A DNA stretch of 64,000 nt from Eledone cirrhosa (GCA_964016885.1 OZ024749.1:7068001-7132000), one strand, 5' to 3'. Positions 4,954 through 58,600 are shown, counted from the stretch's first letter. A program made the numbers and translations. Notes: generated from the sequence alone by a model not told the origin.

Positions 4954-5040
4954 GTATGTATATATATGTATATATATATATATATATATGTATATAATAT
5001 ATAAGATCAAAAGAAGGTTAAATGAGTTCCATATATTTTT

Positions 5041-5096
5041 TTTTATTATGCGCCTTTCAAAAACAAATATCATTTGTGTTTTCATCAGATAAAATA
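5041..5096 (-). ncRNA. Hammerhead ribozyme (H1, inverted copy)
   Basis: Reverse complement: TATTTTAT-CTGATGA-AAACACAAATGATATTTGTTTTT-GAAA-GGCGCA-TA-ATAAAA; one helix III mismatch. Confidence 0.7.
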
Positions 5097-5212
5097 GGAG
5101 GACATGATATGAAGGTTAAAAACACTTGTGGATAGTGCAGTTTTAAATCAACATATATTGATTTAATACTGCACTATCCAAAAGTGTTTTTAACCTTCAT
5201 ATCATGTCGTCC

Positions 5213-5283
5213 TATTTTATCTGATGAAAACACAAATGTTATTGCATGATGATATTTGTTTTTGAAATGCGCATAATAAAATA
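5213..5283 (+). ncRNA. Minimal type-I hammerhead ribozyme (H1)
   Basis: TATTTTAT-CTGATGA-long stem II-GAAA-TGCGCA-TA-ATAAAATA; 8-bp helix I, palindromic helix III. Confidence 0.85.
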
Positions 5284-5416
5284 TATGGAACTCATTTAAC
5301 CATCTTTTGATCTTATATATTATGTATACTCCAGTCCTACAAACTGTAGAGTGCTTCTTATCCGATATCTGCATTGCTTTATTGTACTACAATAAAACAC
5401 CTCCTACATATATATG

Positions 5417-5453
<37 letters not shown>

Positions 5454-5533
5454 GCAAATTAGGCTGCTCAGCAGTTAATATGCATAAGGAAAGTAAATAC
5501 TTTCACACATTCAACCATCTGGCAGGAAGGTGT

Positions 5534-5576
5534 ATGTTGCTGACGATAGCTAATAAGCTTGAAACTAGTACAGCGT
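5534..5576 (+). ncRNA. Minimal hammerhead ribozyme (H0, copy 1)
   Basis: ATGTTG-CTGACGA-TAGCTAATAAGCTT-GAAA-CTAG-TA-CAGCGT. Confidence 0.85.
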
Positions 5577-5970
5577 TCCTTTGTCACTGTTGAACAAATG
5601 AGCAACGATGGTTGCTAGACACTATACGGCTTAATTCAGGATGTTAGTTTACAAACACACCGAGCATTATAATAAATGTTCGGTGAATCCATACGTACAT
5701 ATATATATGTGTGCATGTATGTATATATATATATATATTTACATACTACTGTACGTCTGTATACATATATGCATGTACGTATACATACTTATATTTAAGT
5801 AACAGCCGTACTAAGAGCGAGAAATGAAATTTCGTTTCATTCTTTCCATTTATCGTTTTCGGTACCCCGGCCGATTATCTCACTCGATATGCAAATTAGG
5901 CTGCTCAGCCGTTAATATGCATAAGGAAAGTAAATACTTTCACACGTTCAACCATCTGGCAGGAAGGTAT

Positions 5971-6013
5971 ACGTTGCTGATGATAGCTAATAAGCTTGAA
6001 ACTAGTACAGCGT
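5971..6013 (+). ncRNA. Minimal hammerhead ribozyme (H0, copy 2)
   Basis: ACGTTG-CTGATGA-TAGCTAATAAGCTT-GAAA-CTAG-TA-CAGCGT; 437 nt after copy 1. Confidence 0.88.
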
Positions 6014-6152
6014 TCCTTTGTCAGTGTTGAACAAACGAGCAACGATGGTTGCTGGACACTACGGCTTAATAAAGGATGTTTGTTTACAAACACACCGAGC
6101 ATTATAATAAATGCTCGGTGAATCCATACGTACATATATATATGTGTGCATG

Positions 6153-6186
<34 letters not shown>

Positions 6187-6189
<3 letters not shown>

Positions 6190-6534
6190 TCATCATCAAC
6201 GTTTAACGTCCGTGTTCCACGCTTGCATGGGTTTGGATGGGGGTTTTCCCACTTGAGGCAAGAGTGATTGTCTTGCTCGCATAGGACTGTATGGCGGGTT
6301 TTCTACAGCTGGATGCCCTTCCTAACACCAACCACATTTCCGTGCTACCTACACGGCCACATTACAGCGTGGACTGTGTGTTTTTTTTGTCGTGACACCT
6401 ACACGATCTCATTTGTTTCGGCCTGGATGTTGTGGCACCAACATAACTTTACATTGAAAGGGGTGGTGTGGATGGGGTGGGGGTGGTGGGACGCGGGTGT
6501 ATTTTGTTAGAGATGCCTACTGACTGTAGTAGGT
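6187..6534 (-). mobile_element. RTE family 2 3' UTR fragment
   Basis: Reverse complement matches 2690-3068; (ATC)n tail. Confidence 0.85.
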
Positions 6535-6621
6535 TTATATATATACATACTACTGTACGTCTGTATACATATATGTATGTACGTATACATACTTATATAT
6601 GTATATATATATATGTATATA

Positions 6622-6654
<33 letters not shown>

Positions 6655-6954
6655 TATCATCGTCATCATCATCATTTAACGTCTATTATCTTCCATCATA
6701 GCATGAGCTAGATGGGTTCATCATATTTAGGGGCAAGTTGTTACGGGTAACCATGTGTCGCTCGGGTAACCATGTGTCGCTCATATGGGACTGTTTCAGA
6801 CCAGATTTCTATGGCTGAATGCCCTTCCTACCGCCAACCACATTTACAGTGTGTCCTAGGTGCTTTTTGTCGTGTCACCTGTATGACCAATTTACAATGT
6901 GGGCTGCTTATATATACACACACACATCAATAATAGACATACACATGTATAATA

Positions 6955-7031
6955 CAGGGTGTCCCAAAACAATGTATACACATTTCAACAACATTCTTAT
7001 AATTATGTGTATACATATTTTGGAGACCCTG
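6955..7031. mobile_element. ~77-bp Tc1/mariner-type MITE
   Basis: TA-CAGGGTGTCCCAAAA...TTTTGGAGACCCTG-TA; second copy at 35804-35876. Confidence 0.75.
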
Positions 7032-7763
7032 TATATATAAATATGTGTATAAAAAAAGAGTCAGGACCCCAACAGCTGAGCCCTGACCATTTCAACAGCT
7101 ATATATATATATGATGGCTGCTCCCGCATTATCAAGTATGGCCATTGCACGATATAACATTATTAATAATTATTAATTAATTTCATCGTGCAATGCCTGT
7201 GCGTGAAGATATTTTTTAAAGTGAAGAAAGACTGTGCACTGAGCCAATCCCACTCTCTGAGCGACAGTAGCTATAACCCCAAAAAAAGAAAAGAACAACA
7301 TCATAGGTAACTACTGAGCCGCAGGTTTTATATTGGAGTTATCCCAGTTTCCTGAGTTGCCTTCTCCTAGAAGAATGCCCTGACAAAGGCTAGCGGTCCT
7401 TCACTCCCAGTGGTTTAACCACGCGATCGGATGTCCAGCCCGACTATTTCTATGTCCCCGCACATATACATACACATGCACCCATGTATATATACATATA
7501 CATACATATGTACATGTGTATATACATATTTACACACTTTCGGGTGGCCGTTGACCCTTATGAGTTCTTCCGCCCTTTGTCAGGTTTTGTTTTTTGTCCT
7601 GCAGGGTGTCCAAACTCACCCTCCTCACCAAGTATGTCCGGTCACTCTTGAGTGCTACTGGTGACATGTAACCCAGTACAAACTGTTGCATGGTCGGGTC
7701 GTTGGCGACTAAACCGGCAACCCCACCAAGTTTACTATATATACAAATATATATATATATAGT

Positions 7764-8104
7764 GGAGGCACATGGCTTAGTGGTTAGAGCATTGGCCTTG
7801 CAATCGAAAGGTTGTGAGTTCAATTCTCAGACCGGGTGATGTGTTGTTTCCTTGAGCAAGACACTTTATTTCACATTGTTCCAGTTTACTCAGCTGTAGA
7901 AATGAGATGATAGGGACTGGGGTCCCTATCATTCCACTGCAAAGTGGTCATGGAGGTGCCATGGCAAAAAAGCACCCATCACTCACTGTAAATGAGGTTG
8001 GTGTTAGGAAGGGCATCCAGCTGTAGAAATCAAGCCAGAATCAGTTCCCGTCCCACCCTTGCAAGCAGGGAAAAAGCGGACGTAAAATGAAATGATGAAA
8101 TGAT
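7764..8104 (+). mobile_element. tRNA-derived SINE family B with RTE-derived 3' tail
   Basis: TGGCTTAGTGG A-box, GAGTTCAATTC B-box, CCTTGAGCAAGACACTT core, tail CCCACCCTTGCAAGCAGGGAAAA..GGACGTAAAATG. Confidence 0.85.
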
Positions 8105-8114
8105 ATATATATAT

Positions 8115-8498
8115 GGAGGCACATGGCTTAGTGGTTAGCACATTGGCCTTGCAATCGAAAGGTTGTGAGTTCAATTCTCAGACCGGGTGATGTGTTGTGT
8201 CCTTGAGCAAGACACTTTATTTCACATTGCTCCAGTTTACTCAGCTGTAGAAGTGAGATGATAGGGACCCCAGTCCCTATCAATCAACTGCAAAATGGTC
8301 GTGGAGGTGCCACGGCTAAAAAGCACCCAGCCCACACTGTAAAGTGGACGTGTAGGCGCCACGGCAAAAAAGCACCCAGCACTCACTGTAAATGAGGTTG
8401 GTGTTAGGAAGGGCATCCAGCTGTAGAAATTAAGCCAGAATCAGTTCCTGTCCCACCCTTGTAAGCAGGGAAAAGCAGACGTAAAATGATGATGATGA

Positions 8499-8500
<2 letters not shown>
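8115..8500 (+). mobile_element. SINE family B
   Basis: Second, tandem copy. Confidence 0.85.
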
Positions 8501-8548
<48 letters not shown>

Positions 8549-8634
8549 ATGATGATGATGATGACATATATATATATATATATATATACACACATCAATA
8601 ATATACATACATGTATAATATATATAGATATATG

Positions 8635-8888
8635 GACGTCTGTCATTTCCAATGATGAGAACTTCAGTAGATTTAATCAATTGGAATGCCTCCTTCCGAA
8701 ATTTATGAGTAAAGTGGCTGAGCATTCTACAAACAAATTCACCATCAACGTATTTCTCAGGAAGATTCAGCATGACATAATATCTGTCAAAGCTGGGTCC
8801 GACATAACACACTGCTTAGCCTAGGAATTGAACTCATGAACTTACGATCATAAGTTTAACATACCAACAACTAAGGCATGCACTTTCA
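8635..8888 (-). mobile_element. Older tRNA-derived SINE
   Basis: Degenerate tRNA-like head; body matches 15660-15915 (GAATGCTCAGCCACTT). Confidence 0.55.
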
Positions 8889-8915
8889 CTATGTATAATA
8901 TACATGTATATATAA

Positions 8916-9331
8916 ATAATATAAGATCAAAAGATGGTTAAAACAGTTCCAAGTATTTTATTATGCGCATTTCAAAAACAAATATCATCATGAGATGATA
9001 TCTGCGTTTTCATCAGATAAAATAGGGATACATGATATGAAGGTTAAAAAACACTTGTGAATAGTGAAGTTTTAAATCAACATATGAAGACAACTTCACT
9101 ATTCACAAGTGTTTTTTAAATTTCTTTTCATGAATCCCTATTTTATCTTATGAAAACGCAGATATCTCATGATGATATTTGTTTTTGAAATGCGCGTAAT
9201 AAAATACTTGGAACTCTTTTAACCATCTTTTGATCTTATATTATTTATACTGCAGTCCTACAAACTGTAGAGTGCTACTTATCCGATATTTGCATTGCTT
9301 TATTGTACTACAATAAAACTCACCTCCTACA
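8916..9331. mobile_element. Foldback H1 element (minus HHR 8954-9024 intact; plus HHR core mutated to CTTATGA)
   Basis: Homologous to 4997-5408 with the same geometry. Confidence 0.8.
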
Positions 9332-9579
9332 TGTATATATAGATATATAGATATATAATATACCCCTACATATATGATATAGATATATGTAATATACATA
9401 TAATATAATCATCATCATCGTCATGATATATTCATGTAGATGATGTAAAAAATATATAAGCTATATATATAAAAATATACATAGCTCTACATATATATTA
9501 TACATACATACATATATAATATACATGCATAATATATATATACACGTAACATATACATATATATATATTTATTTGTTGT

Positions 9580-10116
9580 GCCATAGTATCTAGAATAAGA
9601 CGGGTTGGAAGAAGTTTAGGGAGCTGCTTCCTCTGCTAACAAAGAAGGGTTTATCCGAAAGGCCGGTTATATGATGCCTGTGCGAGATGCACGATGCTGC
9701 ATGGTAGTGAGACATGGGCAGCAACTGCGGAGGATATGCGACGGCTGGAGAGAAATGAAGCAAGCATACTCTGATGGATGTACAATGTCACTGAGCCTGA
9801 ATGACCAAGCATGGACAAGTTGAGAGAGAAACTGTGTATAGGAGGGATAAGCTGTAGTGTACGGGAGAGAAGACTGCGCTGGTATGGACATGTGATGTAC
9901 ATGGAGGATTATCGTTGGGTAAAGATGTGCCAAGAAATCCCAGTGGAAAGAAGACGCAGAAGAGGAAGACCACAAAAATCATGGGTGGAAGTGGAGAGAG
10001 CTGACCTCAGCAGGTCAGAGAGGAGATGATGAACGACTGTGATGAATGGAGAGATGCTGTGCTGAATAGAACCCGTCCCACCCTTGCAAGCAGGGAAAAT
10101 GGACGTATGATGATGA
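9580..10116 (+). mobile_element. RTE family 1, 3' fragment
   Basis: Matches 18095-18659. Confidence 0.9.
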
Positions 10117-10572: not shown

Positions 10573-10624
<52 letters not shown>

Positions 10625-11374: not shown

Positions 11375-12030
11375 AAATTAACCAGCCAGATACCGAAGCT
11401 CATGGATGTTATCCAACCATCTGGCTTGGAGTCTACCCCTGGATCCTCGGTCAATTGGTTTGCTCCATACAATTTGTCCAGCAATGATTTTCATTCCAGC
11501 CATGCAGCATTCAACAGCACACTTATCAAGTGCAGTAAACTTATTAAGTAGTACCATGTTGTCTGCAAATTCCACCCCCACTGATGCTACACCTGCCAGT
11601 TTTGATACCACTTCCAACCCAGCTCTGTATGTCAATCCAGTTCCTAATGATTATGAACAAGAGAGGTGGCAGTAGGCACCCTTGGTGGAGTCTAACTCCC
11701 ACATTGAATGGTTTCAACATAGCAGTATTTATCTGAACACCAATGCAAGGGCATTCATATAGAGACATCAGGGCAATAAGAAACTGTCCATCGATCTCAT
11801 ACTCCTGCAGAACCTGCCACAACAGGTCACATGGAACGTGGTCATATGCATTTTCAAGGTCTACATAACAAGAATACATCTCTTGGCAATACTTCCACGA
11901 TTTCTCAAATACCTGCCACAGAGGCCCTATATTTGGTCAGCCCTATTGCTTCCTGAGCAAAAACCACAGGTTATCAGTTAGCTTGGCCTTGACAATCTCC
12001 CTACATCTCTTTGCCAGACATTTAGCCTAG
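11375..12030 (-). mobile_element. RTE family 3, degenerate RT fragment
   Basis: YSCYVDLENAYDHVP..LHQGCLLPPLLFII RT motifs. Confidence 0.8.
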
Positions 12031-12169
12031 ACGTCTGTGTCAGGCTCCTCTATCTTCATGAAACCTTTGGTAAATGAAATAATTACCTTATGTTGTTTAT
12101 TACATAACTAAAAGGCTCTGTAGCCTACATAGAGCACTCTCTTTTCCTTTACCTTTCCTACGGAAACAC

Positions 12170-12207
<38 letters not shown>

Positions 12208-12213
<6 letters not shown>

Positions 12214-12662
12214 ATTAAATAAATGGAAACTATATTTATAAAACCATATTTATTTCATTATATATATTTCAGGGATATCATATTAACAATATGCTATGCC
12301 TTCCTCAGACAAAATACAATATAAACAGTTTTATAGATAAATAGATTTGACATACCGTAACAACATCGACTTGTATTTGAAAAGTTGAATTGGCAATTCA
12401 ACTTTTCAAATACAAGTCGATGTTGTTACGGTATGTCAAATCTATTTATCTATAAAACTGTTTATATTGTATTTTGTCTGAGGAAGGCATAGCATATTGT
12501 TAATATGATATCCCTGAAATATATATAATGAAATAAATATGGTTTCATAAATATAGTTTCCATTTATTTAATATTGTAAATATACTCCAAATACTTGTCG
12601 AGTGCTTTTATATCAGTTATAAATATTTACTAGTTGTAACCCAACAATTTAAATATAACTTT

Positions 12663-12664
<2 letters not shown>
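12208..12664. mobile_element. Foldback pLTR element, family H2 (371-bp near-perfect palindrome plus 3' tail)
   Basis: Arms 12208-12392 and 12394-12578; both carry an HHR; flanked by (TA)n. Confidence 0.85.
12470..12535 (+). ncRNA. Minimal hammerhead ribozyme (H2)
   Basis: TATTTTGT-CTGAGGA-AGG..CCT-GAAA-TATATA-TA-ATGAAATA; mirror copy at 12251-12316 (-). Confidence 0.8.
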
Positions 12665-12707
<43 letters not shown>

Positions 12708-16287: not shown

Positions 16288-16352
16288 TTAAGGATGTATG
16301 AAAAATAAAAAAAACAACTATGCTGAATAAGCTATAGCGTTCAGTTAATCAC

Positions 16353-16904: not shown

Positions 16905-18659
16905 TGATATCAACGAATGGGAGAGAGAGAAATTACTCTTAGTAGGTCTGACAGAGGTACCAGCTATTGAGATTGACGAATATAGGGTCCAAGAGGCGAT
17001 TAAGGAAATGAAAAATGGTAAGGCTGCTGGACCATCGGGAATAGTTGCTGAGATGCTGAAGGCATCAGGGGCGTAGGCACTAAACTGGTTGCACGCATCA
17101 TCAATCAGGCTATATATGGTGGTGTCATACCCAAAGACTGGTGCAGCAGTATTCTCATAAATTGCTACAAAGGTAAAGGGGATGCTCTGGAGAGGAGCAA
17201 TTATAGGGGTATGAAACTAATGGATCAGGTTATGAAAGTGGCAGAAAGGATATTAGCACAACTAATTAGAGAAAGAGTCAAACTAGATGAGATGCAGTTT
17301 GGTTTTGTGCCTGGGAAGAGTACAACAGATGCCCTCTTCTTGGTGAGACAATTGCAAGAGAGATTCTTAGAGAAAAATAAGCCACTATACTTAGCCTTTG
17401 TTGACCTAGAGAAGGCCTTTGATAGGGTAGCCCGATCTGTCATCTGGTGGTCCCTAAGGAAGCTAGGTATTGAGGAATGGCTTGTGAGGACAGTGCAAAC
17501 TTTGTACAGAGGTACTCTCAGTAAAGTCAGGGTAGGAATGGAGTTTAGTGAGGAATTCCAGATACATGTACATCAAGGTTCGGTTCTCAGCCTGCTCTTG
17601 TTCATTATAGTCCGCCAAGCCATAACAGAGGAGTTTAAGACTGGCTGTCCATGGGAACTTCTCTATGCTGACGATCTGGTTCTTATAGCAGAATCAGTAG
17701 AGGAGCTAGAGAATAAATTCTGGCTATGGAAACAGCAGTTGGAAGCAAGAGGACTGAGAGTGAACCTAGCTAAGACAAAAGTGTTGATGAGTAGAAAAGA
17801 GGACAAAACTCTGATACCATCAGGGAAATGGCCAAGTTCGATATGCAGAAAAAGAACTGGCATAAATTCTATAAAATGCACACAATGTAGATCCTGGGTA
17901 CACAAGAGATGTAGCGGGATAGCAGGCAAACTAACAGGTAGGGAGAAATATGTATGCAGTAGATGTACAGGGAAATTAAACAGTAGAAGTCGCATTGATA
18001 GACAGATTTTTCCAATGCAGGAGGGGGCTATAGAAGTGGTGGATAGCTTCTGGTACCTAGAAGATCAGATTAGCATGGGAGGAGGGTGTTCCGAGGCCAT
18101 AGTATCTAGAATAAGGACGGGTTGGAAGAAGTTTAGGGAGCTGCTTCCTCTGCTGACGAAGAAGGGTTTCTCCCTGCGTACGAAAGGCCGGTTGTATGAT
18201 GCCTGTGTGAGGAACGCGATGCTGCATGGTAGTGAGACATGGGCAGCAACTGCAGAGGATATGCGATGGCTGGAGAGAAATGAGGCAAGCATGCTCCGTT
18301 GGATGTGCAGTGTAAATGTGCATGAACGACCCAGCATAAATGTGTTGATAGAGAAACTGTATCTGAGAGGGATAGAATGTAGTGTACGGGAGAGGAGACT
18401 GAGGTGGTATGGACATGTGATGCGCATGGAGGATGACCGCTGGGTGAAGAAGTGCCAGGAAATGCCAGTTGAAGGAAGACGTGGTAGAGGTAGACCACGA
18501 AAAACATGGGCGGAGGTGGTGAGAACAGACCTCAGATCATTGAAGCTCACGGTGGAGATGACGAGGGACCGTGACGAGTGGAGAGATGCTGTGCTGAATA
18601 AGACCCCTCCCACCCTTGCAAGCAGGGAAAAGCGGACGTAAAATGATGATGATGATGAT
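16905..18659 (+). mobile_element. RTE-clade LINE family 1, 5'-truncated
   Basis: MKNGKAAGPSGI upstream (stop/frameshift), RT ORF, (GAT)n tail. Confidence 0.92.
17211..18641 (+). CDS. RTE reverse transcriptase, C-terminal part, with Cys/His-rich insert (probably non-functional copy)
   Basis: [44 protein letters not shown]. Confidence 0.88.
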   Translation: MKLMDQVMKVAERILAQLIRERVKLDEMQFGFVPGKSTTDALFLVRQLQERFLEKNKPLYLAFVDLEKAFDRVARSVIWWSLRKLGIEEWLVRTVQTLYRGTLSKVRVGMEFSEEFQIHVHQGSVLSLLLFIIVRQAITEEFKTGCPWELLYADDLVLIAESVEELENKFWLWKQQLEARGLRVNLAKTKVLMSRKEDKTLIPSGKWPSSICRKRTGINSIKCTQCRSWVHKRCSGIAGKLTGREKYVCSRCTGKLNSRSRIDRQIFPMQEGAIEVVDSFWYLEDQISMGGGCSEAIVSRIRTGWKKFRELLPLLTKKGFSLRTKGRLYDACVRNAMLHGSETWAATAEDMRWLERNEASMLRWMCSVNVHERPSINVLIEKLYLRGIECSVRERRLRWYGHVMRMEDDRWVKKCQEMPVEGRRGRGRPRKTWAEVVRTDLRSLKLTVEMTRDRDEWRDAVLNKTPPTLASREKRT

Positions 18660-24393: not shown

Positions 24394-24970
24394 CATACAT
24401 ACACATACACATATATATATATATATATATACATATATATACATATACATATATATACATATACAGTTGAAAGAACTTGACTGCTATTTCTAGTTGTCGA
24501 TAATCCTATTCACGCCACTGGGTTGAAGCTGGTACAATGTGTGTATTTTTAAAAAAATGCAACACGTCCTGCTAGTCATTCGCAGATTTGAATTTGCTGT
24601 GTAAACATAGATAGTTAAATCTTCTCCCTTGTTGAAAATCCGAATTTGGCTACTGTGGTTTACCGATCGATTAATGGTGAAATATATTTCTTCAATGAAA
24701 TATATACAAGGAAGATTAATCATTTTAAAAGGTATCTATATTTGAAGTTCTAGTTAAACTTTAATTAGTTACCTACCTAGCTATATGTGCTTACACACTT
24801 TTACAAATTATTCCCTGTGATTGTTTCATATGTTTATTTTATATATATATATATGTCAATCAATTTCTAGTTCATATAAAATGCTCGGATCTATTCATTG
24901 GAATCTTTCAGCTTATTCTACAGTGGATATGGCGCATGTCTCTCAGACATTTTGGATATATATATATATA

Positions 24971-25458
24971 TATGTTGATTTAAAACTGCACTATCCACAA
25001 GTGTTTTTAATCTTCATATCATGTCCTCCTATTTTATCTGATGAAAACACAAATGTTATTGCATGATGATATTTGTTTTTGAAATGCGCATAATAAAATA
25101 CATGGAACTCATTTAACCATCTTTTGATCTTATATATTATACAAGGTTAACGTATGTTGATGCCCTAAGGTCAGAAACTGGTCTGTTGGAGACGCAGGAC
25201 ATGGCAGCGATAATGAGGGACAGAGACCGCTGGAGAGAACTCGTCCATGGATCTCGTGAATTTTACCCGCCTTAGATAGATAGATATATATAATATAAGA
25301 TCAAAAGATGGTTAAAAGAGTTCCAAGTATTTTATTATGCGCATTTCAAAAACAAATATCATCATGGGATGATATCTGCGTTCTCATCAGATAAAATAGG
25401 GAGACATGATATGAAGCTTAAAAAACACTTGTGAGCAGTAAAGTTTTAAATCAACATA
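24971..25458. mobile_element. Two H1 arms, tail-to-tail (HHRs 25030-25100 + and 25328-25398 -), separated by a LINE 3' fragment
   Basis: Both cores CTGATGA..GAAA-TGCGCA-TA intact; 25141-25275 encodes MRDRDRWRELV, an RTE-like end. Confidence 0.8.
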
Positions 25459-25768
25459 TATATATATATATATTTCACACGCTGTCCACACGTGTCACCA
25501 AACATCTATTGCATAACTACAAGGCACCGGTCTGATTCTTTGTAATTTTATTTTTAATTTTTTTATTTTATTTTATTTTATTTTAAACCCCAAAACTTTC
25601 CGGACTTTCGCAGTTATTTCCCTTATTTCCCTTATTTCGCAGTTATTTATATAAACATATATATATATATACACATATATATATATATACACATATACAT
25701 ATATATACACATATACACATATACACATATATATATATATACACATATACACATATATATATACACAT

Positions 25769-26576: not shown

Positions 26577-26767
26577 AATGAAGGAGGTGTGGTAAGGAAC
26601 CAGGTGGACCATAACGCACCAGAGTACTCAATACTTAGGGTAGTAGAGTGGGTAATAGGAAAATGTTTGACCCCGACGGCAGAGCTCAAGCCGTTTTGAC
26701 GGCTATTTCTGGACACAGAAATAGCCGTCGAAATGGCTTGAACTCTGCCGTTGGGGTCAAACATTTT

Positions 26768-26772
<5 letters not shown>
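26577..26772. mobile_element. Foldback H5 element
   Basis: Inverted arms 26655-26711 and 26716-26772. Confidence 0.7.
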
Positions 26773-26805: not shown

Positions 26806-26949
26806 TAAACGGAAAAGAAAATGCTGACAAATTGTTCACAGTGAAAAATAGTTTAATTAGGAATAAATGAGAATTAGTAATAGTATTGGTTAGTATTCAG
26901 TTTTGGTTTTAAGTTTTATCATAACTTGTGTGTTACACCTCTATTCTTT

Positions 26950-26987: not shown

Positions 26988-26990
<3 letters not shown>

Positions 26991-27191
26991 ATAATAATAA
27001 AATTGAAGACTAAAATCCAAAGAGGGCTCGATAAGGAAAATATATATCAAAATATATAAGAACCGAAGAGCAAATATTTATTAATATAACAGATTAAAGT
27101 TTAAGCAAAGAATCGCTGCTTTCACCCTTAACGGGATCTTCTGGTGAAAGCAGCGATTCTTTGCTTAAACTTTAATTTGTTATATTAATAA

Positions 27192-27195
<4 letters not shown>
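26988..27195. mobile_element. Foldback element, family H7
   Basis: Arms invert near 27143; minus core CAGAAGA-TCCCGTTAAGGGT-GAAA. Confidence 0.7.
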
Positions 27196-29368: not shown

Positions 29369-29444
<76 letters not shown>

Positions 29445-29531
29445 ACACTGGAAGGCAATATCCGTAGTGGTAGAGCACTCAGTCCATGGGACGAGTTAGG
29501 TAGAAGTGGTTACACAACAGTTAGTTCACCA

Positions 29532-29574
29532 TACCGAGAACAATTGTTTCACCTTACCGGATCCTCAGCTCGTA
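29532..29574 (-). ncRNA. Minimal hammerhead ribozyme (H6) in foldback element 29444-29643
   Basis: Reverse complement: CGAG-CTGAGGA-TCCGGTAAGGT-GAAA-CAATTG-TT-CTCG. Confidence 0.8.
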
Positions 29575-29695
29575 TTGGCCGAGGATCCGCTAAGGTGAAA
29601 CAATTGTTCTCGGTATGGTGAACTAACTGTCGTGTTACCACTTATATATATATATATATATAAACTAACTGGTGTATTACCTTTTCAACATATTG

Positions 29696-29743: not shown

Positions 29744-29769
29744 TGTGTGAGTCCTGGGTTCAATCGGGG

Positions 29770-29932
29770 GGTAACCACAGTGAATAAGGTACTCAATACA
29801 TTAGTAGAGTGTAAACAACAAATCTAATATAGAAATGGCTTCTACAGGACTAGAACTGTTTCATTTGAAGAGCTTTCCTGATGATTTCCTTTGAATGAAA
29901 CAGTTCTAGTCCTGTAGAAGTCATTTCTATAT
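29770..29932. mobile_element. Foldback element, family H4 (partial hammerhead)
   Basis: Arms ~29828-29866 and ~29894-29932; CTGATGA..GAAA-CAGTTCTAG-TC; helix I not recoverable. Confidence 0.55.
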
Positions 29933-30127: not shown

Positions 30128-30496
30128 TGTTAGGAAGGGCATCCAGCTGTAGAAATCAAGCCAAAATCAGTTCCCGTATGAGCAAGACAAGGTCACCCGA
30201 CCTGGCATTGCCCACAACAGAAACAAACCGTCTAACCCATGCTAGCGTGGAAGAATGGACGTAAAACGGTGATGATGACAATATATATATATATATATAT
30301 ATATATAGTATAAAAGAGAAAACACAGGTAAGCATTAAGAGAAGGATTTTATCCAGGTATTTACGACCGTTTCATTGGTAAGTGCAACCTTATATTGCTA
30401 TACTGCAAATAGCACCCACTCAATTATAATTGTTGTTCACAATCCAAATTTTCAAAATGTTCTGCTTCCCTAACTATATATATATATATATATATC

Positions 30497-30968
30497 TATA
30501 ATTAAATGACAGGAGGCTGGATTTCTGTAAATCCTTGAAAGGTTTATTATACTATGATCATTTCAATGACCGGGTTCCGTATGAATCCGGTGATATCATC
30601 AGGTATTCAAAATATAATACGTGAATGTAACAGATAAAATCCATGGGGCTGAAAATCAAGGACCCGAGGGCGACTGCCATCCAGCATCTTCTACCTTTGC
30701 CGGTCGCCCGAATACCTGATGATATCACCGGATTCATACGGAACCCGGTCATTGAAATGATCATAGTATAATAAACCTTTCAAGGATTTACACAAATCCA
30801 GCCTCCTGTCATTTCATTATAATATTTAACTCCGTAATAGCACCACCAACTACAAAAACAAAGACGGTTGAACTGCTTTACGTTGAGTACTCTCTGTATT
30901 ATTACATTGCGATTGACCATACGAAATTGACCAGCTCTATCCAGTGGTGAACCTCAAACCTGAATAAA
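30497..30968. mobile_element. Foldback element, family H3
   Basis: Arms 30497-30608 and 30710-30821 plus tail; flanked by (TA)n. Confidence 0.8.
30712..30769 (+). ncRNA. Minimal hammerhead ribozyme (H3)
   Basis: ATAC-CTGATGA-stem II (ACCGG..CCGGT)-GAAA-TGATCA-TA-GTAT; mirror copy at 30549-30606 (-). Confidence 0.82.
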
Positions 30969-31124
30969 TATATATATCTATATATAGACACACACACATG
31001 CAGCAGGGTTCTGCACAATCAATGCCAACAAATTTTCCCCAGATGGCTCAGTAGAACCAAGGAATGATAGAGGACAGTAAACCAAGTTGCTGTACAATGA
31101 AATTGAACCTAGAAACACTTGGTT

Positions 31125-31382: not shown

Positions 31383-31641
31383 CACTCACAGATCCATAAG
31401 TATAAATGGTGGTGTCCTGCTTTGACCAGTTTTGCTCAATGACTGAAAGAATTAAAATAATCAGAGATATCTTTCAAATTATAAATGTGAGGAAAGAATA
31501 GATCCTATATATATATATACATATATATATAGTAATAATAATAAATATGAAGACTAAAATCGAAAGAGGGCTCGAAAAGGATAAATATATATCAAATATA
31601 TAAGAACCGGAGAGCAAATATTTATTAAAATAACACATTAA

Positions 31642-31692
31642 AGTTTAAGCAAATAATCGGTGCTTTCATTCTTAACAAGATCTTCTGAAACT
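31642..31692 (-). ncRNA. Hammerhead variant (H7, CAGAAGA core)
   Basis: Reverse complement: AGTTT-CAGAAGA-TCTTGTTAAGAAT-GAAA-GCA..TGC-TT-AAACT. Confidence 0.6.
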
Positions 31693-32068
31693 CATATATA
31701 TATATATATATATCCAAAATTAAATTAAGGGTTGTCATGTCTGAGAGACATGCGCCATATCCACTGCAGAATAAGCTCAAAGATTCCAATGAATAGATCC
31801 GAGCATTTTATATCAACTAGAAATAGATTGACATATATATATATATATAAAATAAACATTACAAATTATTCTCTGTGATTGTTCCATATGTTTATTTTAT
31901 ATATATATATATATATGTCATAGCGGCGATGAATTAGTTTTGCGAGGTTTTTTATATGAAATCGTGTGTTCTGTTATTAATTCTGACAATATTACGCAAA
32001 TATGACCCTCCCCAGATATAACAATATATATATGTCAATCTATTTCTAGTTGATATATATATATACAT

Positions 32069-32315: not shown

Positions 32316-32535
32316 GGAACAAGTAGGACCCCGACGGCTGAGCTCAAGCCATTTCGACGGGTAATTCTGGAATAAAATGTCTAGAATTAGCTAGATTTTA
32401 GTCCAGAATTAGCCATTGAAACGGCTTGAGCTCAGCCGTCGGGGTCCTACTCATTCCTATTACCCACTCTACTACTGTAAGTATTGAGTACTTTGGTGCG
32501 TTATGGTCCATCTGGTTCCTTACCACATTTCCTTC

Positions 32536-32538
<3 letters not shown>
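32316..32538. mobile_element. Foldback H5 element
   Basis: GAAA-CGGCTTGAGCTCAGCCG-TC on the plus strand; inverted partial copy on the left. Confidence 0.7.
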
Positions 32539-39531: not shown

Positions 39532-39753
39532 TCATCATCATCATCATCATCGTTTAACGTCCATTTTCCATGCTAGCATGGGTCTGGACGGGAATTGTCC
39601 CACTTGAGGCAAGATTGGTTGTCTTGCTCAGGACTGTCTGGCGGGTTTTCTACGGCTGGATGCCCTTCCTAACACCAACCACGTTTACAGTGTGGACTGG
39701 GAGGTTTTTACCGTGTTACCTACACGGCCACATTACAGCGTGGACTGTGTGTT
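39532..39753 (-). mobile_element. RTE family 2 3' UTR fragment
   Basis: (ATC)n tail plus UTR match. Confidence 0.8.
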
Positions 39754-39949
39754 TTCTTCTCTATACTTATGAAATTTTCCCAACTAGGTTTGGGGAAATA
39801 CTGGTAATCCCAAAAACCTTATAGTATAAATATCAAGATAGTCGATTGAATACGCACGTCTGTTTTTTTTCTCCCAATTTTTTTCCTCATTTTCTCCATT
39901 CCTTCCTCTCATCACTTTTTACTTTCTATTTATCTTCGATTTTTAACTA

Positions 39950-39985
39950 TCTTCTGATGAAAGACTAGTGTCTGAAACGTTAAGA
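39950..39985 (+). ncRNA. Ultra-minimal hammerhead ribozyme
   Basis: TCTT-CTGATGA-A-AGAC(TAGT)GTCT-GAAA-CG-TT-AAGA; helix III is the palindrome AACGTT. Confidence 0.7.
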
Positions 39986-46603: not shown

Positions 46604-48058
46604 GTTCATCATGTCCTTAGCCCCCTCCTATTTATTATTGCCCTTCTGGCTATAACAGCGGAGTTCAAGACCGGCTGACCATGGGACCTTCTATATGCAG
46701 ATGATCTAACTCTCATAGCTGAATCTATAGCTGAACTAGAGAAGAAATTCCAAATATGGAAGCATGGCCTAGAATCAAAAGGCCTTAAAGTTAACTTGTC
46801 AATGACTAAAGTTCTAGTTTGTAGAAAGGAAAATAGGTCACAGGTGCCCTCAGGGAAATGGCCATGCTCAGTGTGTAGGAAAGAAGTAGGCAGAAATTCC
46901 ATTTTATGTCCCAAATGCAAATTATGGGTACATAAAAGATGTAGTGGGATCACAGGTAAGCTATCTAAGAACATAGATTTTATATGTGGCCGATGCTCAG
47001 GTGCAATAAGTAGCAAGTGCCCACAGGATACTAGCTCCTTCTATTGCCCAGATGGTTCTATAGAAATAGTGGACACCTTCCGTTTCCTGGGTGACAAAAT
47101 CAGCAGTGGTGGAGGGTGTTCTGAAAATACAGTAGCTAGAGTCAGAACGGGATAGAAAGAGTTCAGAGAGCTTATACCGCTATTGGCCACAAAAGGTTTC
47201 TTTCTAAAAATGAAAGGCAGATTGTATGATGCCTGTATATGAACAGCAATGCTACATGGTAGTGAGACATGGGCATTACGTGCAGAGGACCTGCGCAGAC
47301 TGGAAAAGAATGAAGCATGCATGCTCCGTTGGATGTGTAATAGTAATATACGTGAACGGCAAAGCATAAATGAACTAAGTGAGAAATTAGGAATAAGAGG
47401 GATCAGATGCTGTTTACTTGAGAGAAGACTACGTTGGTATGGCCACGTGATGTGCATGAAAGGCGACAGCTGTATAAAAAAGTTCAGGGCGATCAAAATT
47501 GTTGGTAGTTTCGGAGTAGGTAGACCCAGAAAAACCTGGGACGATCAGATAAATTATGACCTTACACACTTGCACCTCTCTAAGACAATGTCACTGGACC
47601 GAGATCTTTGGCGCTATGCAGTAATACAGAAGACCAGCCTTGCCTATGTACAAAGCGAAACCTAGTTAGTAGGCACCTCTTAACCAAATATACACCGCAA
47701 TCCACTACCCCTAACCTATCCTCCCACTCCCACCACTCTCTCTCTGTAAAGTTGGTACCACAACATTCAGTCCAAATAAATGAGATAATGAGATCGAGAT
47801 CATGTAGGTATCACGACAAAAAGAAACACAGTCCACACTGTAATGTGGCCATGTAGGTAACACGGTAAAGAGTTCCCAGTTCCACACTGTAAATGTGGTT
47901 GCTGTTAGGAAGGGCATCCAGCCATAGAAAACCTGCAAGATAGTCCTATATGAGTGAGACACGGTCACCCGACCAACCTTGCCTCAAGTGGGACAACTCC
48001 CGTCTAACCCATGCTAGCGTGGAAGATGGATGTTAATCGAAGATGATAATGATGATGA
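46604..48058 (+). mobile_element. RTE family 2, 5'-truncated, with in-frame stops
   Basis: [37 protein letters not shown]; long 3' UTR. Confidence 0.92.
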
Positions 48059-48490
48059 TTAGATATATATATATATATATGAGTAAGTATGTTTTGAAAC
48101 AGTGAGCAGGTTTGAAATTAGAAAATAGAATAGCTTTCACCGTATTTTTGACTAAAGAAATTTTAGCCTGATAATGGGGTTTAGAAACCCTCAGATAAAT
48201 GGAAAAAGATGAGTATTGATGTACATCAATACTCATCTGTAGTATAAAAGAGGTCGTAGACTAATGTTCTCTAAGAGAACATTAGTCTACGACCTCTTTT
48301 ATACCATAAACGTGGTTTTGTCTTTGCGTGTAATTGTTTTTCACCGCTCCTATTAATGACGTATTATATTCGTTTATTCCTGTTCTTTGCCAGGGAACGT
48401 TTCCACGAACCAAAGTATCGTCTTCCTGTCCTCCTCCGGTTGCAACGTTTTTTTAAATATTCACTTCTGCGTTTACAGATTGACTTTGTT

Positions 48491-48541
48491 AGTTTCAGAA
48501 GATCCCGTTAAGGGTGAAAGCAGCGATTCTTTGTTTAAACT
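48491..48541 (+). ncRNA. Hammerhead variant (H7, CAGAAGA core)
   Basis: AGTTT-CAGAAGA-TCCCGTTAAGGGT-GAAA-GCAG..TTGT-TT-AAACT. Confidence 0.65.
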
Positions 48542-48557
48542 TTAATCTGTTATTTTA

Positions 48558-48588
<31 letters not shown>

Positions 48589-52972: not shown

Positions 52973-52983
52973 TATTATTATTA

Positions 52984-53162: not shown

Positions 53163-53559
53163 ATTATATGAATCATCATCATCATCATCATCGTCATAAA
53201 CATCATTGGTATCTGTTTTTCCATACTGGCGTGGGTTGAACCAGACATTGTTTTAAAGCCAGATGTCCTTCCTGATATAAAACACTATAATTGACTAAAT
53301 GAACTTTACAACATGCAGCGATATTTGAATATATAAATAACAAGCAAATAATAGTTGTTGTGGAAGCTTCATTAATGTTGTTAAATTATCAGACTCAGTG
53401 TTTTTGGTAAGAACAATGGCAAAATTTTGAAGTCAAGAGTCACCATTAATATCAATTATTACATGGACTCTATACACTGATATTTCACCTTATTTCAGTA
53501 CATGTTTAATGTGTTTATCACACAACCCCCGAACCAATAAAAAAATAATTTATAATAAT

Positions 53560-53625
<66 letters not shown>

Positions 53626-54234
53626 ATCTAATAGTTCTTCAAACTTGCAATTTTACATATATATATATATATATATATATATGAGAAAATCCCATTAACA
53701 TGTTCTACTGTTTTTCTTATTTTCCTAATATGCACATCCACATATGTATATATGTATATATGTATGCATGCATGTATGTATGCATGTATGTATGCATGTA
53801 TGCATGCATGTATGTATGTATGCATGTATGTATGTATGCATGTATGTATGCATGTATGTATGCATGTATGTAAGTATGTATATATACGCATATGCATATT
53901 CACATGTGTCTGTGTGTATGAGTGATAAAGAAAAGGAGTGTTAGGGTGCAGCAATAGATAGGGAGATAGAGAGAGATAGATAGAGAGAGAGAGAGAGATA
54001 GATAGAGAGAGAGAGAGAGAGATAGGGAGAGAGAGAGAGAGAGAGATAGGGAGATAGATAGATAGGGAGATAGATAGAGAGAAAGATAGAGAGAAAGATA
54101 GAGAGAAAGATAGAGAGAAAGATAGAGAGAAAGATAGAGAGATGGTTAGATGGATGGATAGATAGAGAGAGAGATGGATAGAAGATATATAGATAGAGAG
54201 AGAGAGGGATAGATAGATAGATAGAAAAGATAGA

Positions 54235-56672
54235 TTTCTTTTATTTGCCACTAGGGCATCAAAAGTGGGACAAGTACAAAGGGGGGAGTTTACACAAAAA
54301 GGCGTCCTCAATAAGGAGGAGGCAATAACAAAATATAAAAATAAAATAAGATATAACAAAAAATAAAATTTTTAACAAAATCCTCAATAGAGAGGAGGCG
54401 CCTTGGGGGGGTCGCACACACCCCCGAAAAAAGTGTGCAACCCTTCTCCTCAGGAGCACAGAGAAGGGGTGCTCCCTTGGTCTTTCATCTTCCTCACCTA
54501 TAGTCTGATGTAGAGTGAAGGCCCATTCACACAGGCCATTCTCGCCACTTTCACCCATCTTTCATAGAAACGGCTGGGGTGCAGCACCTCTCTCTCCATC
54601 CTGATCCTTCTTCCGAAATGATATCGGAAGAAACGGACCAGTTGTTGGCCAGAGAGAAAGGTGCCCGACCTCAGTCCTTTCAGACGCGTCCACCATACAA
54701 CCTCTTTCGCCATGGCTATTACGCACAGAAACACCGCCTCTGCTTCATCTTTGAAGGGGGGAGGCGGCTTGATCATTACAATAGACTCGGTGGTCAACCG
54801 GATCGGTCCCACCCTTGACAGCAGTTGTTCGACATAGCCCCACAGATCGGCTACGCCCGAGCAGTGTACTAATGCGTGTGCAACGGTTTCCTCGTCGCAC
54901 ACGCTTCTGGGACAGATCTTTTTGGCGGGGTCCCTACCCGGGCGCCCGTGTCTGTAGAGCCTTTCTCGAACGGGTAAAGCCCCTCGGTAGCACTGCCAGG
55001 CCAGGGACTTCTGGAAGTTGTCCATAGGTCCCGGGCTGAATGTCCTACCGAACAGGCTGGCCAGTTCGTCCTCCTCCATGTCTAGGGCTTCTCCGAGGGC
55101 GTCGTCGCACCTGCTGCATACCAGCCCTCTATAGAATGTTGCGGTGGAGTCTCCACTGATAACCGGATCCGCCTGCCAGAGGGCGGTGAGCGCCTGGGCA
55201 CACTCAGTGTGCCAGGCGCCCAGTTTTCTCGGTCTTTGCTTGACCCAGGATTGCAGCTCGGTGAGTGAGACGAGTCTGGGAAAGGTTCGTCTCACAAACG
55301 AGGCCCACACCGGTTGTCCGGTGAGGAATACGTAGAGGTGCCGTAGCCTTAATGCGTGTTTACGCATCATTAGCCACGGCATCCCCAGCCCTCCTTTCGA
55401 AGGGTGTTGACAGCAGATGGATCTCCTCACCATAGGAGCCCGCCTCTTCCAAAGGAATTGGAAGAGCGCGCGCTCCATCTTGGTGAGGGTTTCCCTTGGG
55501 CAGGGCACTACGGTCAGGCGGTAGTAGATGACGGACGCTATGTAGGTGTTCGCCACCTCCGCCCGACCTTTCAGGGATAGTTTGCAACTGGCCCACTTCT
55601 GGGTCAGTGCAAACACCCTGTTCGTAACCTCCGCCCAGTTTTTCTCCACCTGGAGGTCCGGTCCGAACCAGACCCCGAGCAACTTCACCGGGCCCTCCGT
55701 CCAGCGTCCGACGACGCTATCGGAGGGCATCGGTCTGCCCCTCCACGTGCCGAGTTGCAAACCGATCGACTTGTCCCGGTTCAGCTTAGCCCCTGTGAAC
55801 TTTTCGTACTCCTCTAGTAAGGTGCCGACCACCTCGATTTCGGAGGCCGTCGACACCATTACTGTCACGTCATCGGCGTAGGCCGACACCGCTTTCCGCA
55901 ATCCCGGTTCCAAAGGGATGCCCTGCAACAACTCCAACTTCCGCAGTAGTGGCTCGAGAGTCAACCCATACAGAAGGGAGGAGAGAGGGCACCCTTGTCG
56001 GATGGACCGCGCGATTTTGAACGGCTCCGAGAGGTAGCCGTTCACCTTGACCCTAGAGCAGATGCGGCTGCTGTGCATAGCAGTGATCCAGCCCCTGAAA
56101 ACGGGTCCGAAGCCTGCCGCCGCTAGCACCGCATCCAGGTAACCATGGTCGACCCTATCGAACGCCTTAGATTGATCCAAGTTGATCAGAGCCCCACCAA
56201 AGCCGGGTTCGTTCCCAACCCTCTCTATGATGTATCGCATGAGGTGGAGGTTGTCATGGATGGACCTGGACGGGATAGCGCATGTCTGCGCATCTCCCAC
56301 CAGGTTGCCCACGACAAGCGCCAACCTCTTTGCTAGCACCTTGGCCAAAATCTGTAACTCTGTATTTAGCAGTGTTATGGGCCTGAAGTTACTTATTTCG
56401 TCCCCCTTGTTCTCATCCTTCCTCACTAGCGTGACTACGCCCTTGGTCACAGTACAGGGAATTCTCCCGTTCTGTTGCCAGTTGCAGTAGACCGCCTCGA
56501 GGAGATCGGGGAACAAGTCCGGCATAGCTAGATATAATTCGTAAGGAAGACCATCGAGACCCGGGGATTTGCGTTTGCCGCATTGGCTCAGCACGTCCTC
56601 TATCTCAGCGGCCGAAATCGGCTCCTCGCAGGACTTCGCCTCCCTGTCCGAGAGGCGCGGCAGGCCGTCGAG
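54235..56672 (-). mobile_element. Tx1/L1-clade LINE, 5'-truncated, embedded in GATA/GA microsatellite
   Basis: GC-rich; uninterrupted ORF2; 3' end GCAAATAAAAGAAA abuts (TCTA)n. Confidence 0.9.
54498..56672 (-). CDS. Tx1-type ORF2 fragment (RT plus C-terminal Cys/His region), ~724 aa, endonuclease missing
   Basis: KSPGLDG, NFRPITLLN, LDQSKAFDRVDH, IRQGCPLS, AYADDV, ETVAHALVHC. Confidence 0.9.
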   Translation of the reverse strand, partial: LDGLPRLSDREAKSCEEPISAAEIEDVLSQCGKRKSPGLDGLPYELYLAMPDLFPDLLEAVYCNWQQNGRIPCTVTKGVVTLVRKDENKGDEISNFRPITLLNTELQILAKVLAKRLALVVGNLVGDAQTCAIPSRSIHDNLHLMRYIIERVGNEPGFGGALINLDQSKAFDRVDHGYLDAVLAAAGFGPVFRGWITAMHSSRICSRVKVNGYLSEPFKIARSIRQGCPLSSLLYGLTLEPLLRKLELLQGIPLEPGLRKAVSAYADDVTVMVSTASEIEVVGTLLEEYEKFTGAKLNRDKSIGLQLGTWRGRPMPSDSVVGRWTEGPVKLLGVWFGPDLQVEKNWAEVTNRVFALTQKWASCKLSLKGRAEVANTYIASVIYYRLTVVPCPRETLTKMERALFQFLWKRRAPMVRRSICCQHPSKGGLGMPWLMMRKHALRLRHLYVFLTGQPVWASFVRRTFPRLVSLTELQSWVKQRPRKLGAWHTECAQALTALWQADPVISGDSTATFYRGLVCSRCDDALGEALDMEEDELASLFGRTFSPGPMDNFQKSLAWQCYRGALPVRERLYRHGRPGRDPAKKICPRSVCDEETVAHALVHCSGVADLWGYVEQLLSRVGPIRLTTESIVMIKPPPPFKDEAEAVFLCVIAMAKEVVWWTRLKGLRSGTFLSGQQLVRFFRYHFGRRIRMEREVLHPSRFYERWVKVARMACVNGPSLYIRL

Positions 56673-56815
56673 GATAGAGAGATAGATAGAAAAGATAGAG
56701 AGATAGATTGAGAGAAAGATAGAGAGAAAGATAGAGAGAAAGATAGAGAGATAGAGAGAAAGATAGAGAGATAGAGAGAAAGATAGAAAGATAGAGAGAA
56801 AGATAGATAGATATG

Positions 56816-56913
56816 TTTCTTTATTTGCCACAGGGGCATACAAAAATGGGACATTACAAGACGTGACGGCGGGGGTTTTACATAAAAATCATATAAGTCT
56901 AACATTAATAAAT
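56816..56913 (-). mobile_element. Second Tx1-like 3' terminus
   Basis: Reverse complement GTCCCATTTTTGTATGCCCCTGTGGCAAATAAAGAAA, homologous to 54235-54280. Confidence 0.7.
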
Positions 56914-57581
56914 ATAGATAGAAAGATAGATAGATAGAAAGATAGATAGAAAGATAGATAGAAAGATAGATAGAAAGATAGATAGAAAGATAGATAGAAA
57001 GATAGATAGAAAGAGAGAGAGAGAAAGGAAGAACACAACAATGTACATTATTCATCACTTTATGATACTATATTTTTTTTGTTTTTCCTTTGTTTTTGTT
57101 TTGTTTATTTTTGTTTTACACTTTCTTATAATCACGAGAAAAAGATATCTAGAAAATATTTTAGACTTGAAAATATGAGACCCCCCCCCACACACACACA
57201 GAGCCAAACCTCATAAAACAAAAAAAAAAAAAACATTAAAAAAAAATAAAGAAAGTCAAGTCAAAAAACCTATTTGTAATATCTTATTTTCTCATTTTGG
57301 TATATTTATTATTTAGAGAGAGATTTTGACTGATACTTCACACATTATTTTAGATATTAATAAAAACAGAATACTGAGAGAATATTTTTAAAGGACATTA
57401 GCTTCTGCAAATATATTTTGCAATTAAGTTTGATTTTTTCCTATTTATTTGTTTGTTTGTTTGTTTTTAATTCCATCTTTCATTCAATCCTTTGCAGAAT
57501 CTTATAATGCTGAAATGTTGATATTATCTGTGTTAAGGAATATTTGGTAAATAATGTCTGTAAAAATATTGAAAATATATA

Positions 57582-58194
57582 TCATCATCATTTTATGTCC
57601 GCTTTTCCCTGCTTGCAAGGGTGGGAAGAGTCCTATTAAGTACAGCATCTTTCCACTTGTTACGGTCCTTCGTCATCTCCTCCGTGAGCTTCAGCGATCT
57701 TAGGTCAGCTCTCACCACCTCCGCTCATATTTTTTGTGGTCTTCCTCTACTGCGTCTTCCTTCTACTGGGATTTCTTGGCACATCTTTACCCAGTGGTCG
57801 TCCTCCATGCACATCACATGTCCATACCAACGCAGTCTTCTCTCCCGTGCACTACAGTTTATCCCTCTTATACAAGTTTCTCTCTCAACTCGTCTATGCT
57901 TGGTCATTCAGGCACATTGACATTGCACATCCAACGGAGCATGCTTGCTTAATTTCTCTCCAGCCGTAGCATATCCTCTGCAGTTGCTGCCCATGTGTCA
58001 CTACCATGCAGCATCGCACATCTCAAACAAGCATCATATAACCGGCCTTTCATTCGTAGGGAGAAACCCTTCTTTGTCGACAGAGGAAGCAGCTCCCTAA
58101 ACTTCTTCCAACCCATCATTATTCTAGATACTATGGCCTTGGAGCAACTTCCTTCCTTGCTAATCTGATCACCTAGGTATTGGAACCTATCAAT

Positions 58195-58198
<4 letters not shown>
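57582..58198 (-). mobile_element. RTE family 1 3' fragment
   Basis: Sequence and translation match. Confidence 0.9.
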
Positions 58199-58283
<85 letters not shown>

Positions 58284-58463
58284 GCAAAAGTTTTATTTAA
58301 GATTGTTGGGTTACAATGAGTAAATATTTTATAACTGATATAAAAGCACTCGACAGTTTCTGGAGTAGGTTTACGATATTAAACTACCAAATCAACTTTT
58401 TAAAAGGAAGTTGCATTATTACAAGGTATGTCACTAATTATTTATAAAACAGCTTATGTATTG

Positions 58464-58529
58464 TATTTTGTCTGAGGAAGGCATAACATATTTTTAATAT
58501 GATATCCCAGAAATATATATAACGAAATA
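58464..58529 (+). ncRNA. Hammerhead ribozyme (H2) in rearranged element 58285-58572
   Basis: TATTTTGT-CTGAGGA..GAAA-TATATA-TA-ACGAAATA; inverted tail segment at 58285-58383. Confidence 0.7.
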
Positions 58530-58570
58530 AATATGGTTTTATAAATATAGTTTCCATTTGTTTAATATCG

Positions 58571-58600
<30 letters not shown>

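Follow-up and report, generated by a model that had tools for sequence, protein, structure and literature searches.

What kind of event leaves two inverted copies of one short element joined at their 5' ends, the one running through a hairpin and a tail and the other stopping just ahead of that hairpin? The question is raised by ten insertions in a window of 64,000 nucleotides from Eledone cirrhosa (GCA_964016885.1 OZ024749.1:7068001-7132000), animal-type DNA with 35.8% GC of which 16% is masked as simple repeat. The ten sites were picked for their paired-arm anatomy in the first place, and foldback detection was by unbiased self-BLAST of the masked window, which recovered a local inverted repeat at nine of them. 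The tenth, at 58285, is an inverted arm pair with an overlap of only ~13 nt and is thus barely a foldback; its boundaries come from BLAST and its long-arm rows were left out of the alignment-based identities. Arm boundaries are not base-exact throughout, and some coordinates in Table 1 hold to within a few bases.

By alignment, all ten sites consist of a pair of inverted arms that meet at their 5' ends, with a long arm that spans an RCTC...GAGY hairpin and a tail and a short arm that stops ahead of the hairpin, just as the original prediction had described. A tail is present on one end only at every site, there is no poly(A) at the long ends, and the long arm extends 55-145 nt beyond the short end. 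The short end lies 2-16 nt upstream of RCTC at nine sites, as had also been claimed, the exception being 8916, where the motif is mutated and the stretch common to both arms reaches it (offset 0). This end recurs in independent copies within the window (four short arms of H1 and two out of two in each of H2, H5 and H7), and a further fragment at 62287 is interrupted earlier by unrelated sequence. The 5' ends are equally regular in the window, falling on the same base in five of six H1 arms, on the same point in three H2 arms and within ~10 nt in five H5 arms. The description of ten foldbacks with truncated 5' joints is thus sound with regard to the inverted arms, but the 5' ends are mostly fixed by family rather than being random truncations, and 58285 scarcely folds back.

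Table 1. Positions of the paired-arm insertions, related arms and reverse transcriptase frames in the window
Feature	Position	Strand	Detail
H1 insertion, subfamily A	4997-5407	short arm - (~4997-5153), long arm + (~5156-5407)	hammerhead 5221-5275, RCTC 5328
Target-site duplication of H1 subfamily A insertion, 15 nt	left 4982-4996, right 5408-5422	+	
H1 insertion, subfamily B (8916)	8915-9330	short arm -, long arm +	
Target-site duplication of 8916 insertion, 14 nt	left 8901-8914, right 9328-9341	+	right copy overlaps tail end by 3 nt
H2 insertion (12208)	12208-12664		palindrome 12217-12569, 3-nt loop; RCTC 12584, tail to 12664
Hammerheads of 12208 H2 insertion	12478-12527, 12308-12259	+, -	
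H5 insertion	26578-26772	long arm -, short arm +	RCTC 26649; present part without hammerhead
H7 insertion	26988-27193	long arm -, short arm +	long arm with variant hammerhead core 27143, RCTC ~27071
Single-copy family 29444	29445-29643	long arm -, short arm +	long arm ends in (GA)n, hammerhead core 29568, RCTC 29496; short arm ends in (TA)n
Single-copy family 29770	29749-29932	long arm -, short arm +	long arm ends in (CA)n/(TG)n, RCTC 29810; short arm with hammerhead core 29878
H3 insertion (30497)	30501-30965		arms 30504-30608, 30710-30814; RCTC ~30829, tail ~140 nt
Hammerhead cores of 30497 H3 insertion	30602, 30716	-, +	
Target-site duplication of 30497 insertion, 15 nt	left 30486-30500, right 30968-30982	+	
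H5 insertion	32316-32536	short arm -, long arm +	RCTC 32466; joint holds short duplicated arm piece
H2 insertion (58285)	58284-58572	tail-bearing arm - (58290-58383), short arm + (58388-58572)	RCTC 58366
Facing tail-less H1 arms	24974-25460		3' ends face each other across ~160 nt of different sequence
Solo H5 arm with tail	2259-2395	-	
Solo H7 arm with tail	31531-31694	-	
H7 arm stopping at short end	48476-48562	+	extra upstream sequence present
Solo tail-bearing end, another family	12060-12172	+	RCTC 12115; (TA)n common with 12208 insertion
LINE-type RT frames (Pfam)	17052-18641, 54498-56888, 46679-47665, 11544-11936	+, -, +, -	

Flanks on both sides are TA-type at eight of the ten sites. The (TA)n target needs correcting at two sites: the long end runs into (GA)n at 29444 and into (CA)n at 29770, and the short end of 29770 is without pure (TA)n. 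The 5' ends of the two arms are within ~20 nt of each other at eight sites, and at 30497 a spacer of 101 nt separates the arms. Which arm reaches further at its 5' end varies. The long arm is longer at 26577, at 26988 (by 17 nt) and probably at 29444, and the short arm is longer at 8916 (by ~12 nt), at 58285 and probably at 29770 and 30497. At 29770 the excess is likely ~20 nt, as the hammerhead core sits there. The 8916 short arm keeps an intact hammerhead (9016-8962, minus strand), its long arm has both the hammerhead core and RCTC mutated, and its joint has 6 extra nt. The palindrome at 12208 is near-perfect with 1 mismatch in 184 columns, and the short arm at 58285 has the same 5' end as the 12208 insertion. 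A third, short and degenerate piece of the 29444 arm lies at 29662-29680, right after (TA)n.

Judged from sequence, the ten sites are likely the 3' ends of Hydra-clade Penelope-like elements (PLEs) or short non-autonomous derivatives of them. With a strict descriptor of the type I hammerhead, the window yields 11 sites where Markov controls give 0.08, and 7 of these are H1 or H2 arms, whose hammerheads have a long stem II. A relaxed core adds 30497 (H3), 29444 and 29770, H7 has a variant core, and neither the strict nor the relaxed core scan found a hammerhead in the present part of H5. The CT and GAG of the RCTC...GAGY motif are invariant across the ten tails of the window. These hammerheads, together with Hydra-clade consensi that are arranged alike at their 3' ends, speak for the PLE assignment, but no RT or GIY-YIG gene is linked, so that membership of the Hydra clade is only likely: among 137 of the 174 open frames of at least 62 aa, Pfam returned no GIY-YIG or PLE RT and RT matches of LINE-type only, and a motif scan of the window found no PLE protein gene. 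Rfam gave 257 matches at E up to 1; among the 150 listed none is at gathering score, none belongs to a hammerhead family and almost all of these sub-threshold matches are miRNA. Short motifs from the window had no direct family match in the available part of the supplement of Craig et al. (PMC8557442), and an exact scan for the H1 hairpin gave 0 in metagenome contigs and 0 in viral contigs. Nine metagenome loci matching the hammerhead pattern were discarded as chance, the similarity to H1 being confined to 15-23 nt. Additionally, a minimal hammerhead stands alone at 39954-39981; a base ahead of its stem II is unpaired, as has been described for PLE hammerheads.

Three other memberships were rejected. 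MITE or foldback DNA transposons do not fit, as one terminus is a unique tail and the duplications are 14-15 nt rather than short and fixed; LINE-1-type twin-primed insertions work alike, but the long ends have no poly(A); and the ten sites are inverted pairs, not the head-to-tail tandems of non-LTR retrozymes.

The H1 ends were also followed in four public runs aligned to the H1 long arm, X22 and X23 as raw reads and X15 and X1 as contigs; these are short reads and RAD data from few loci, and joints are placed on the H1 long arm only. Among the top-ranked matches listed, which show a mode rather than a full histogram, loose ends enter (TA)n at 5328 in 272 of 5086 (X22) and 223 of 5631 (X23) raw reads, in 57 contigs among 3171 aligned in X15 (261 only partly) and in 2 of 32 contigs in X1. 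At 5324, the first base where a TA continuation departs from the long arm, the differing reads have 42 and 46 start places, so that many loci are involved, and 59 contigs clustering at 5308 look like a variant subfamily. The H1 tail end also enters TA at a fixed place (positions 5398 and 5415), and ~400 raw reads per run reach the H1 5' end, with truncated copies existing too. Opposite-strand joints occur at 5187-5316 (76 and 88 raw reads in two samples), at 5188-5379 (94 raw reads with a single start place, in one sample) and at 5213-5256 (5 and 4 raw reads). The first two have little or no arm overlap, and read lengths point to a head-to-head geometry. The predicted repetition of the endpoint within a family is found in the window copies and, for H1, in public runs.

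Solo arms in the window stop at either of the two sites, those at 2259, 31531 and 12060 being tailed and those at 24974, 25460 and 48476 tail-less. The facing H1 arms at 24974 and 25460 both have the fixed 5' end of their family, belong to different subfamilies and are 11% apart.

At three of the ten sites, target-site duplications tie the two arms of an insertion together. Both ends are flanked there by an interrupted direct repeat, which is 15 nt long at 4997, 14 nt at 8916 and 15 nt at 30497, and by the same criterion, which was set after seeing the candidates, 0 of 90 mismatched flank pairs are positive (p 7e-4). This stricter test replaced a looser one in which pure TA runs made 6 of 90 controls positive at 13 nt or more. 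An informative duplication is absent at the other seven sites, five of which are pure TA on both sides and two of which have unlike flanks. One duplication around both arms indicates a pre-existing target, a staggered cut and a single event for both arms. Divergence between arms within an insertion is 4.3 and 5.9% for H1, 8.6 and 10.3% for H5 and 0.5% for H2, compared with 9.2-14.6%, 15.5-22.4% and 12%, respectively, between foldbacks, and in every testable foldback both arms carry the same subfamily variants. The arms are no closer to each other than to an arm of the same subfamily elsewhere (3.2-3.5%), so that one RNA and two would look alike.

The best model, which we regard as reasonably probable, is two-sided priming from both ends of one staggered cut. 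Its observed parts are the anatomy, the fixed ends, the duplications at three sites and the subfamily concordance. As to the enzyme, the priming, the role of the hairpin and the joining, we infer that a GIY-YIG endonuclease would nick both strands ~14-15 nt apart and so provide two 3' ends, one of which would pair with the AT-rich motif directly ahead of the RCTC hairpin, while its partner would pair at the tail end. Both would be extended toward the 5' end of same-subfamily RNA, often stopping at the family-typical point, and the two cDNAs would then be joined head to head via end-joining repair. The model is favored because a single duplication brackets both arms (3/10 versus 0/90), because arms are closer within an insertion than between foldbacks, because either arm can be the longer at its 5' end, because read joints show little or no arm overlap, because solo copies stop at either site, and because PAc (Poseidon, Anolis) nicks and extends both strands in vitro with two starts that bound the tail (PMC11167929). 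Against it count the missing linkage to a PLE protein gene, the seven sites without an informative duplication, the weakness of the hairpins, the choice of sites for their anatomy, a joint geometry deduced from read lengths and the small number of RAD loci; additionally, the PAc start site is the same on both strands, which leaves one short and one long arm unexplained. The original prediction of two priming events from opposite strands thus gains indirect support, from the three duplications, the variable arm length and the in vitro behavior of PAc, but a self-complementary (TA)n target is not strictly required given that two long ends lie outside TA.

An unlikely though serious alternative is single priming at the tail end, after which the cDNA would snap back at the template 5' end and be copied back, the second arm being trimmed by the element's own endonuclease or by a hairpin block before joining the target (compare the "EN-mediated resolution" of the tail in PMC8557442). 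Such a route directly accounts for one short and one long arm, for subfamily variants common to both, for 5' ends ~20 nt apart or less at eight sites and for the 0-3 nt loops at 4997 and 12208, whose near-perfect hairpins are what snapping back would give; the close 5' ends and these hairpins also count against two-sided priming. However, a tail-primed cDNA that folds back cannot yield the sites where the short arm has 5' sequence missing from the long arm (8916, 58285, probably 29770 and 30497, and the read joints) unless extra deletions follow, although a later deletion at the palindrome centre could lengthen either arm. The tail-less solo arms at 24974, 25460 and 48476 also argue against it.

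A second alternative, which we consider improbable, keeps PLE-type two-sided priming but has the ends set by RNA ends or by a monomer junction together with AT microhomology instead of by the hairpin; slippage while priming may add part of the (TA)n. Weak hairpins fit this view, with folding z between -2.5 and +0.2 and below -2 in only 3 of 10, as do ends that blend into whichever repeat flanks them and the Hydra-1_Ajap consensus, which starts at the hairpin and ends without one, so that the short end coincides with its unit junction. However, RCTC and GAG are nearly invariant over unrelated families, and at three sites the interrupted duplications represent pre-existing target DNA. Six of seven long arms also hold sites that are equally or more TA-like and are not used as ends in the window, so that more than a TA-like sequence is needed to set the short end. 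The proposal that the hairpin defines the start points is thus favored by the conserved motif and the unused sites but tempered by the folding scores, and the hairpin may have this role.

Two separate insertions of opposite orientation into one (TA)n hotspot are very improbable: microsatellites are hotspots and the facing pair at 24974 and 25460 does combine differing subfamilies, but both arms are of the same subfamily in every testable foldback, a single duplication surrounds both arms and there is usually no microsatellite between them. Readings as MITE or foldback DNA transposons, as Helitron-type ends or as artefacts of assembly or amplification can scarcely be credited. Inverted repeats in TA and a hairpin close to the 3' end would suit them, but only one of the two ends has a tail, hammerheads and 14-15 nt duplications are present, the arms differ by 0.5-10%, and the same end and inverted joints recur in independent public runs.

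The window holds further arrangements that touch on these families. An eleventh foldback at 4436-4687 contains a perfect 66-nt palindrome with a short left and a long right arm, and its tail part and a 30-nt piece reappear at 26808-26946 in opposite relative orientation. Another family with an RCTC...GAGY hairpin (31775) has copies at 24801-24949 and 31738-31888, both adjoining the same 30-nt piece in different arrangements. At 48207-48562, adjacent palindromes of 32 and 63 nt are followed by ~250 nt that run into the H7 short end. Between the facing H1 arms, ~150 nt at 25140-25290 end in a four-base repeat and have no second copy in the window; this segment looks like a LINE 3' end. Among the LINE-type RT frames, Pfam gives a PHD-finger match in two and RVT_1 with a weak zf-RVT in a 796-aa frame. 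A 187-aa frame at 58728-59291 has no Pfam match and presumably resembles a Tc1/mariner-type transposase fragment, and 39556-39758 belongs to a dispersed, SINE-like repeat that the window matches at least 14 times. The H7 variant hammerhead core sits after a splice-acceptor-like tract, and one might speculate, in analogy to the overlap of intron and hammerhead described in PMC4209133, that splicing restores the canonical core.

The feature is real and stereotyped and adds a set of new families to a known class. The inverted copy with a one-ended tail and the two RT start sites are already published, as largely is the two-start idea; what is added here is detail, namely a hairpin that Hydra consensi also have, a longer tail, a stagger of 14-15 nt and 5' ends that are fixed. 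These details leave the class unchanged and sharpen the testability of the PLE integration model, the origin of PLE inverted repeats and of the one-sided tail being named as unresolved in PMC8557442 and PMC11167929. Short and abundant copies allow predictions that can be counted (how many pairs are short-long, how long the stagger is and which arm is longer), the conserved hairpin is a target for in vitro mutation, and annotation may mistake such copies for MITEs, SINEs or miRNA hairpins. More tentatively, it is possible that programmed two-sided priming is the regular route by which Hydra-type PLEs integrate. A dimeric enzyme would make cuts in (TA)n that are staggered by 14-15 nt and would lead one end to the start ahead of a clade-wide RCTC...GAGY hairpin and the other to the tail end, giving one short-long pair per event; short non-coding elements with fixed 5' ends would then exploit this as a SINE-like class.

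We found no published account of the RCTC hairpin or of the short-long rule in a search that was thin on subscription papers, including earlier PLE reviews, and no title on PLEs among the papers listed for "twin priming" with "Penelope". Hydra-clade PLEs prefer (TA)n targets and an inverted 5'-truncated copy is recorded for Penelope-13_HM (Craig et al. 2021, PMC8557442), and recently active Penelope-like families are reported in octopus (PMC13282606). Compared by eye, three of six new Hydra consensi (PMC8557442) close with a hammerhead that is followed by an AT-rich stretch, an RCTC...GAGY-type hairpin and a tail, exactly so in Hydra-2_Amil and Hydra-2_Ajap and as a variant in Hydra-1_Crog; the other three are tail-less and one of them starts with the hairpin. 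These layouts suggest that the tail may be the start of the next unit in a tandem precursor. The window units thus share with Hydra-clade PLEs the target and the 3' order of elements, but they are non-coding, 130-270 nt long and have family-fixed 5' ends and, in H1 and H2, a long hammerhead stem II, and the likeness is one of layout rather than computed homology to a named family.

That PLEs often have an inverted truncated pLTR, as the original prediction stated, is the described pattern: their insertion unit has an inverted 5'-truncated copy (pLTR) and an optional 30-40 bp tail on one end (PMC3846280; PMC8557442; PMC8969392). The inverted copy, the one-sided tail and, at three sites, a target-site duplication around the whole unit are found here too, but the extension is 55-145 nt as opposed to 30-40, the duplication is 14-15 nt as opposed to 8-10, and there is no ORF between the repeats. 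PLE repeats also carry hammerhead motifs, including opposite-strand pairs 100-700 bp apart (PMC4209133). PAc, a predicted dimer with a start site without strand bias, resembles the present case in its AT-rich target, the nicking and extension of both strands, two starts bounding the tail, a stem-loop at the start region and an uncleaved hammerhead in the template; in contrast, it starts in an AC-rich stem-loop inside the ORF, whereas the short end of the window insertions precedes the hairpin by 0-16 nt and has a long end as its counterpart (PMC11167929).

In LINE-1 twin priming, the second target end likewise primes cDNA and leaves an inverted piece inside one duplication, which 58285 resembles (PMC2837659; 10.1101/2024.12.14.628481), but here poly(A) is lacking, the second start is fixed and the arms usually overlap over nearly their whole length. 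The non-LTR retrozymes of animals derive from PLEs and are arranged in tandem (10.64898/2026.07.22.740005). The window has a retrozyme-like dimer of its own, two direct copies of another family (5457-5712 and 5894-6147) that are 94.5% identical and 437 nt apart, each with a hammerhead and a palindromic stem III (5540 and 5977), with a spacer piece found again at 6545-6591. Like retrozymes, the paired-arm insertions are non-coding, probably PLE-derived and equipped with a type I hammerhead; unlike them, they are inverted pairs rather than head-to-tail tandems.
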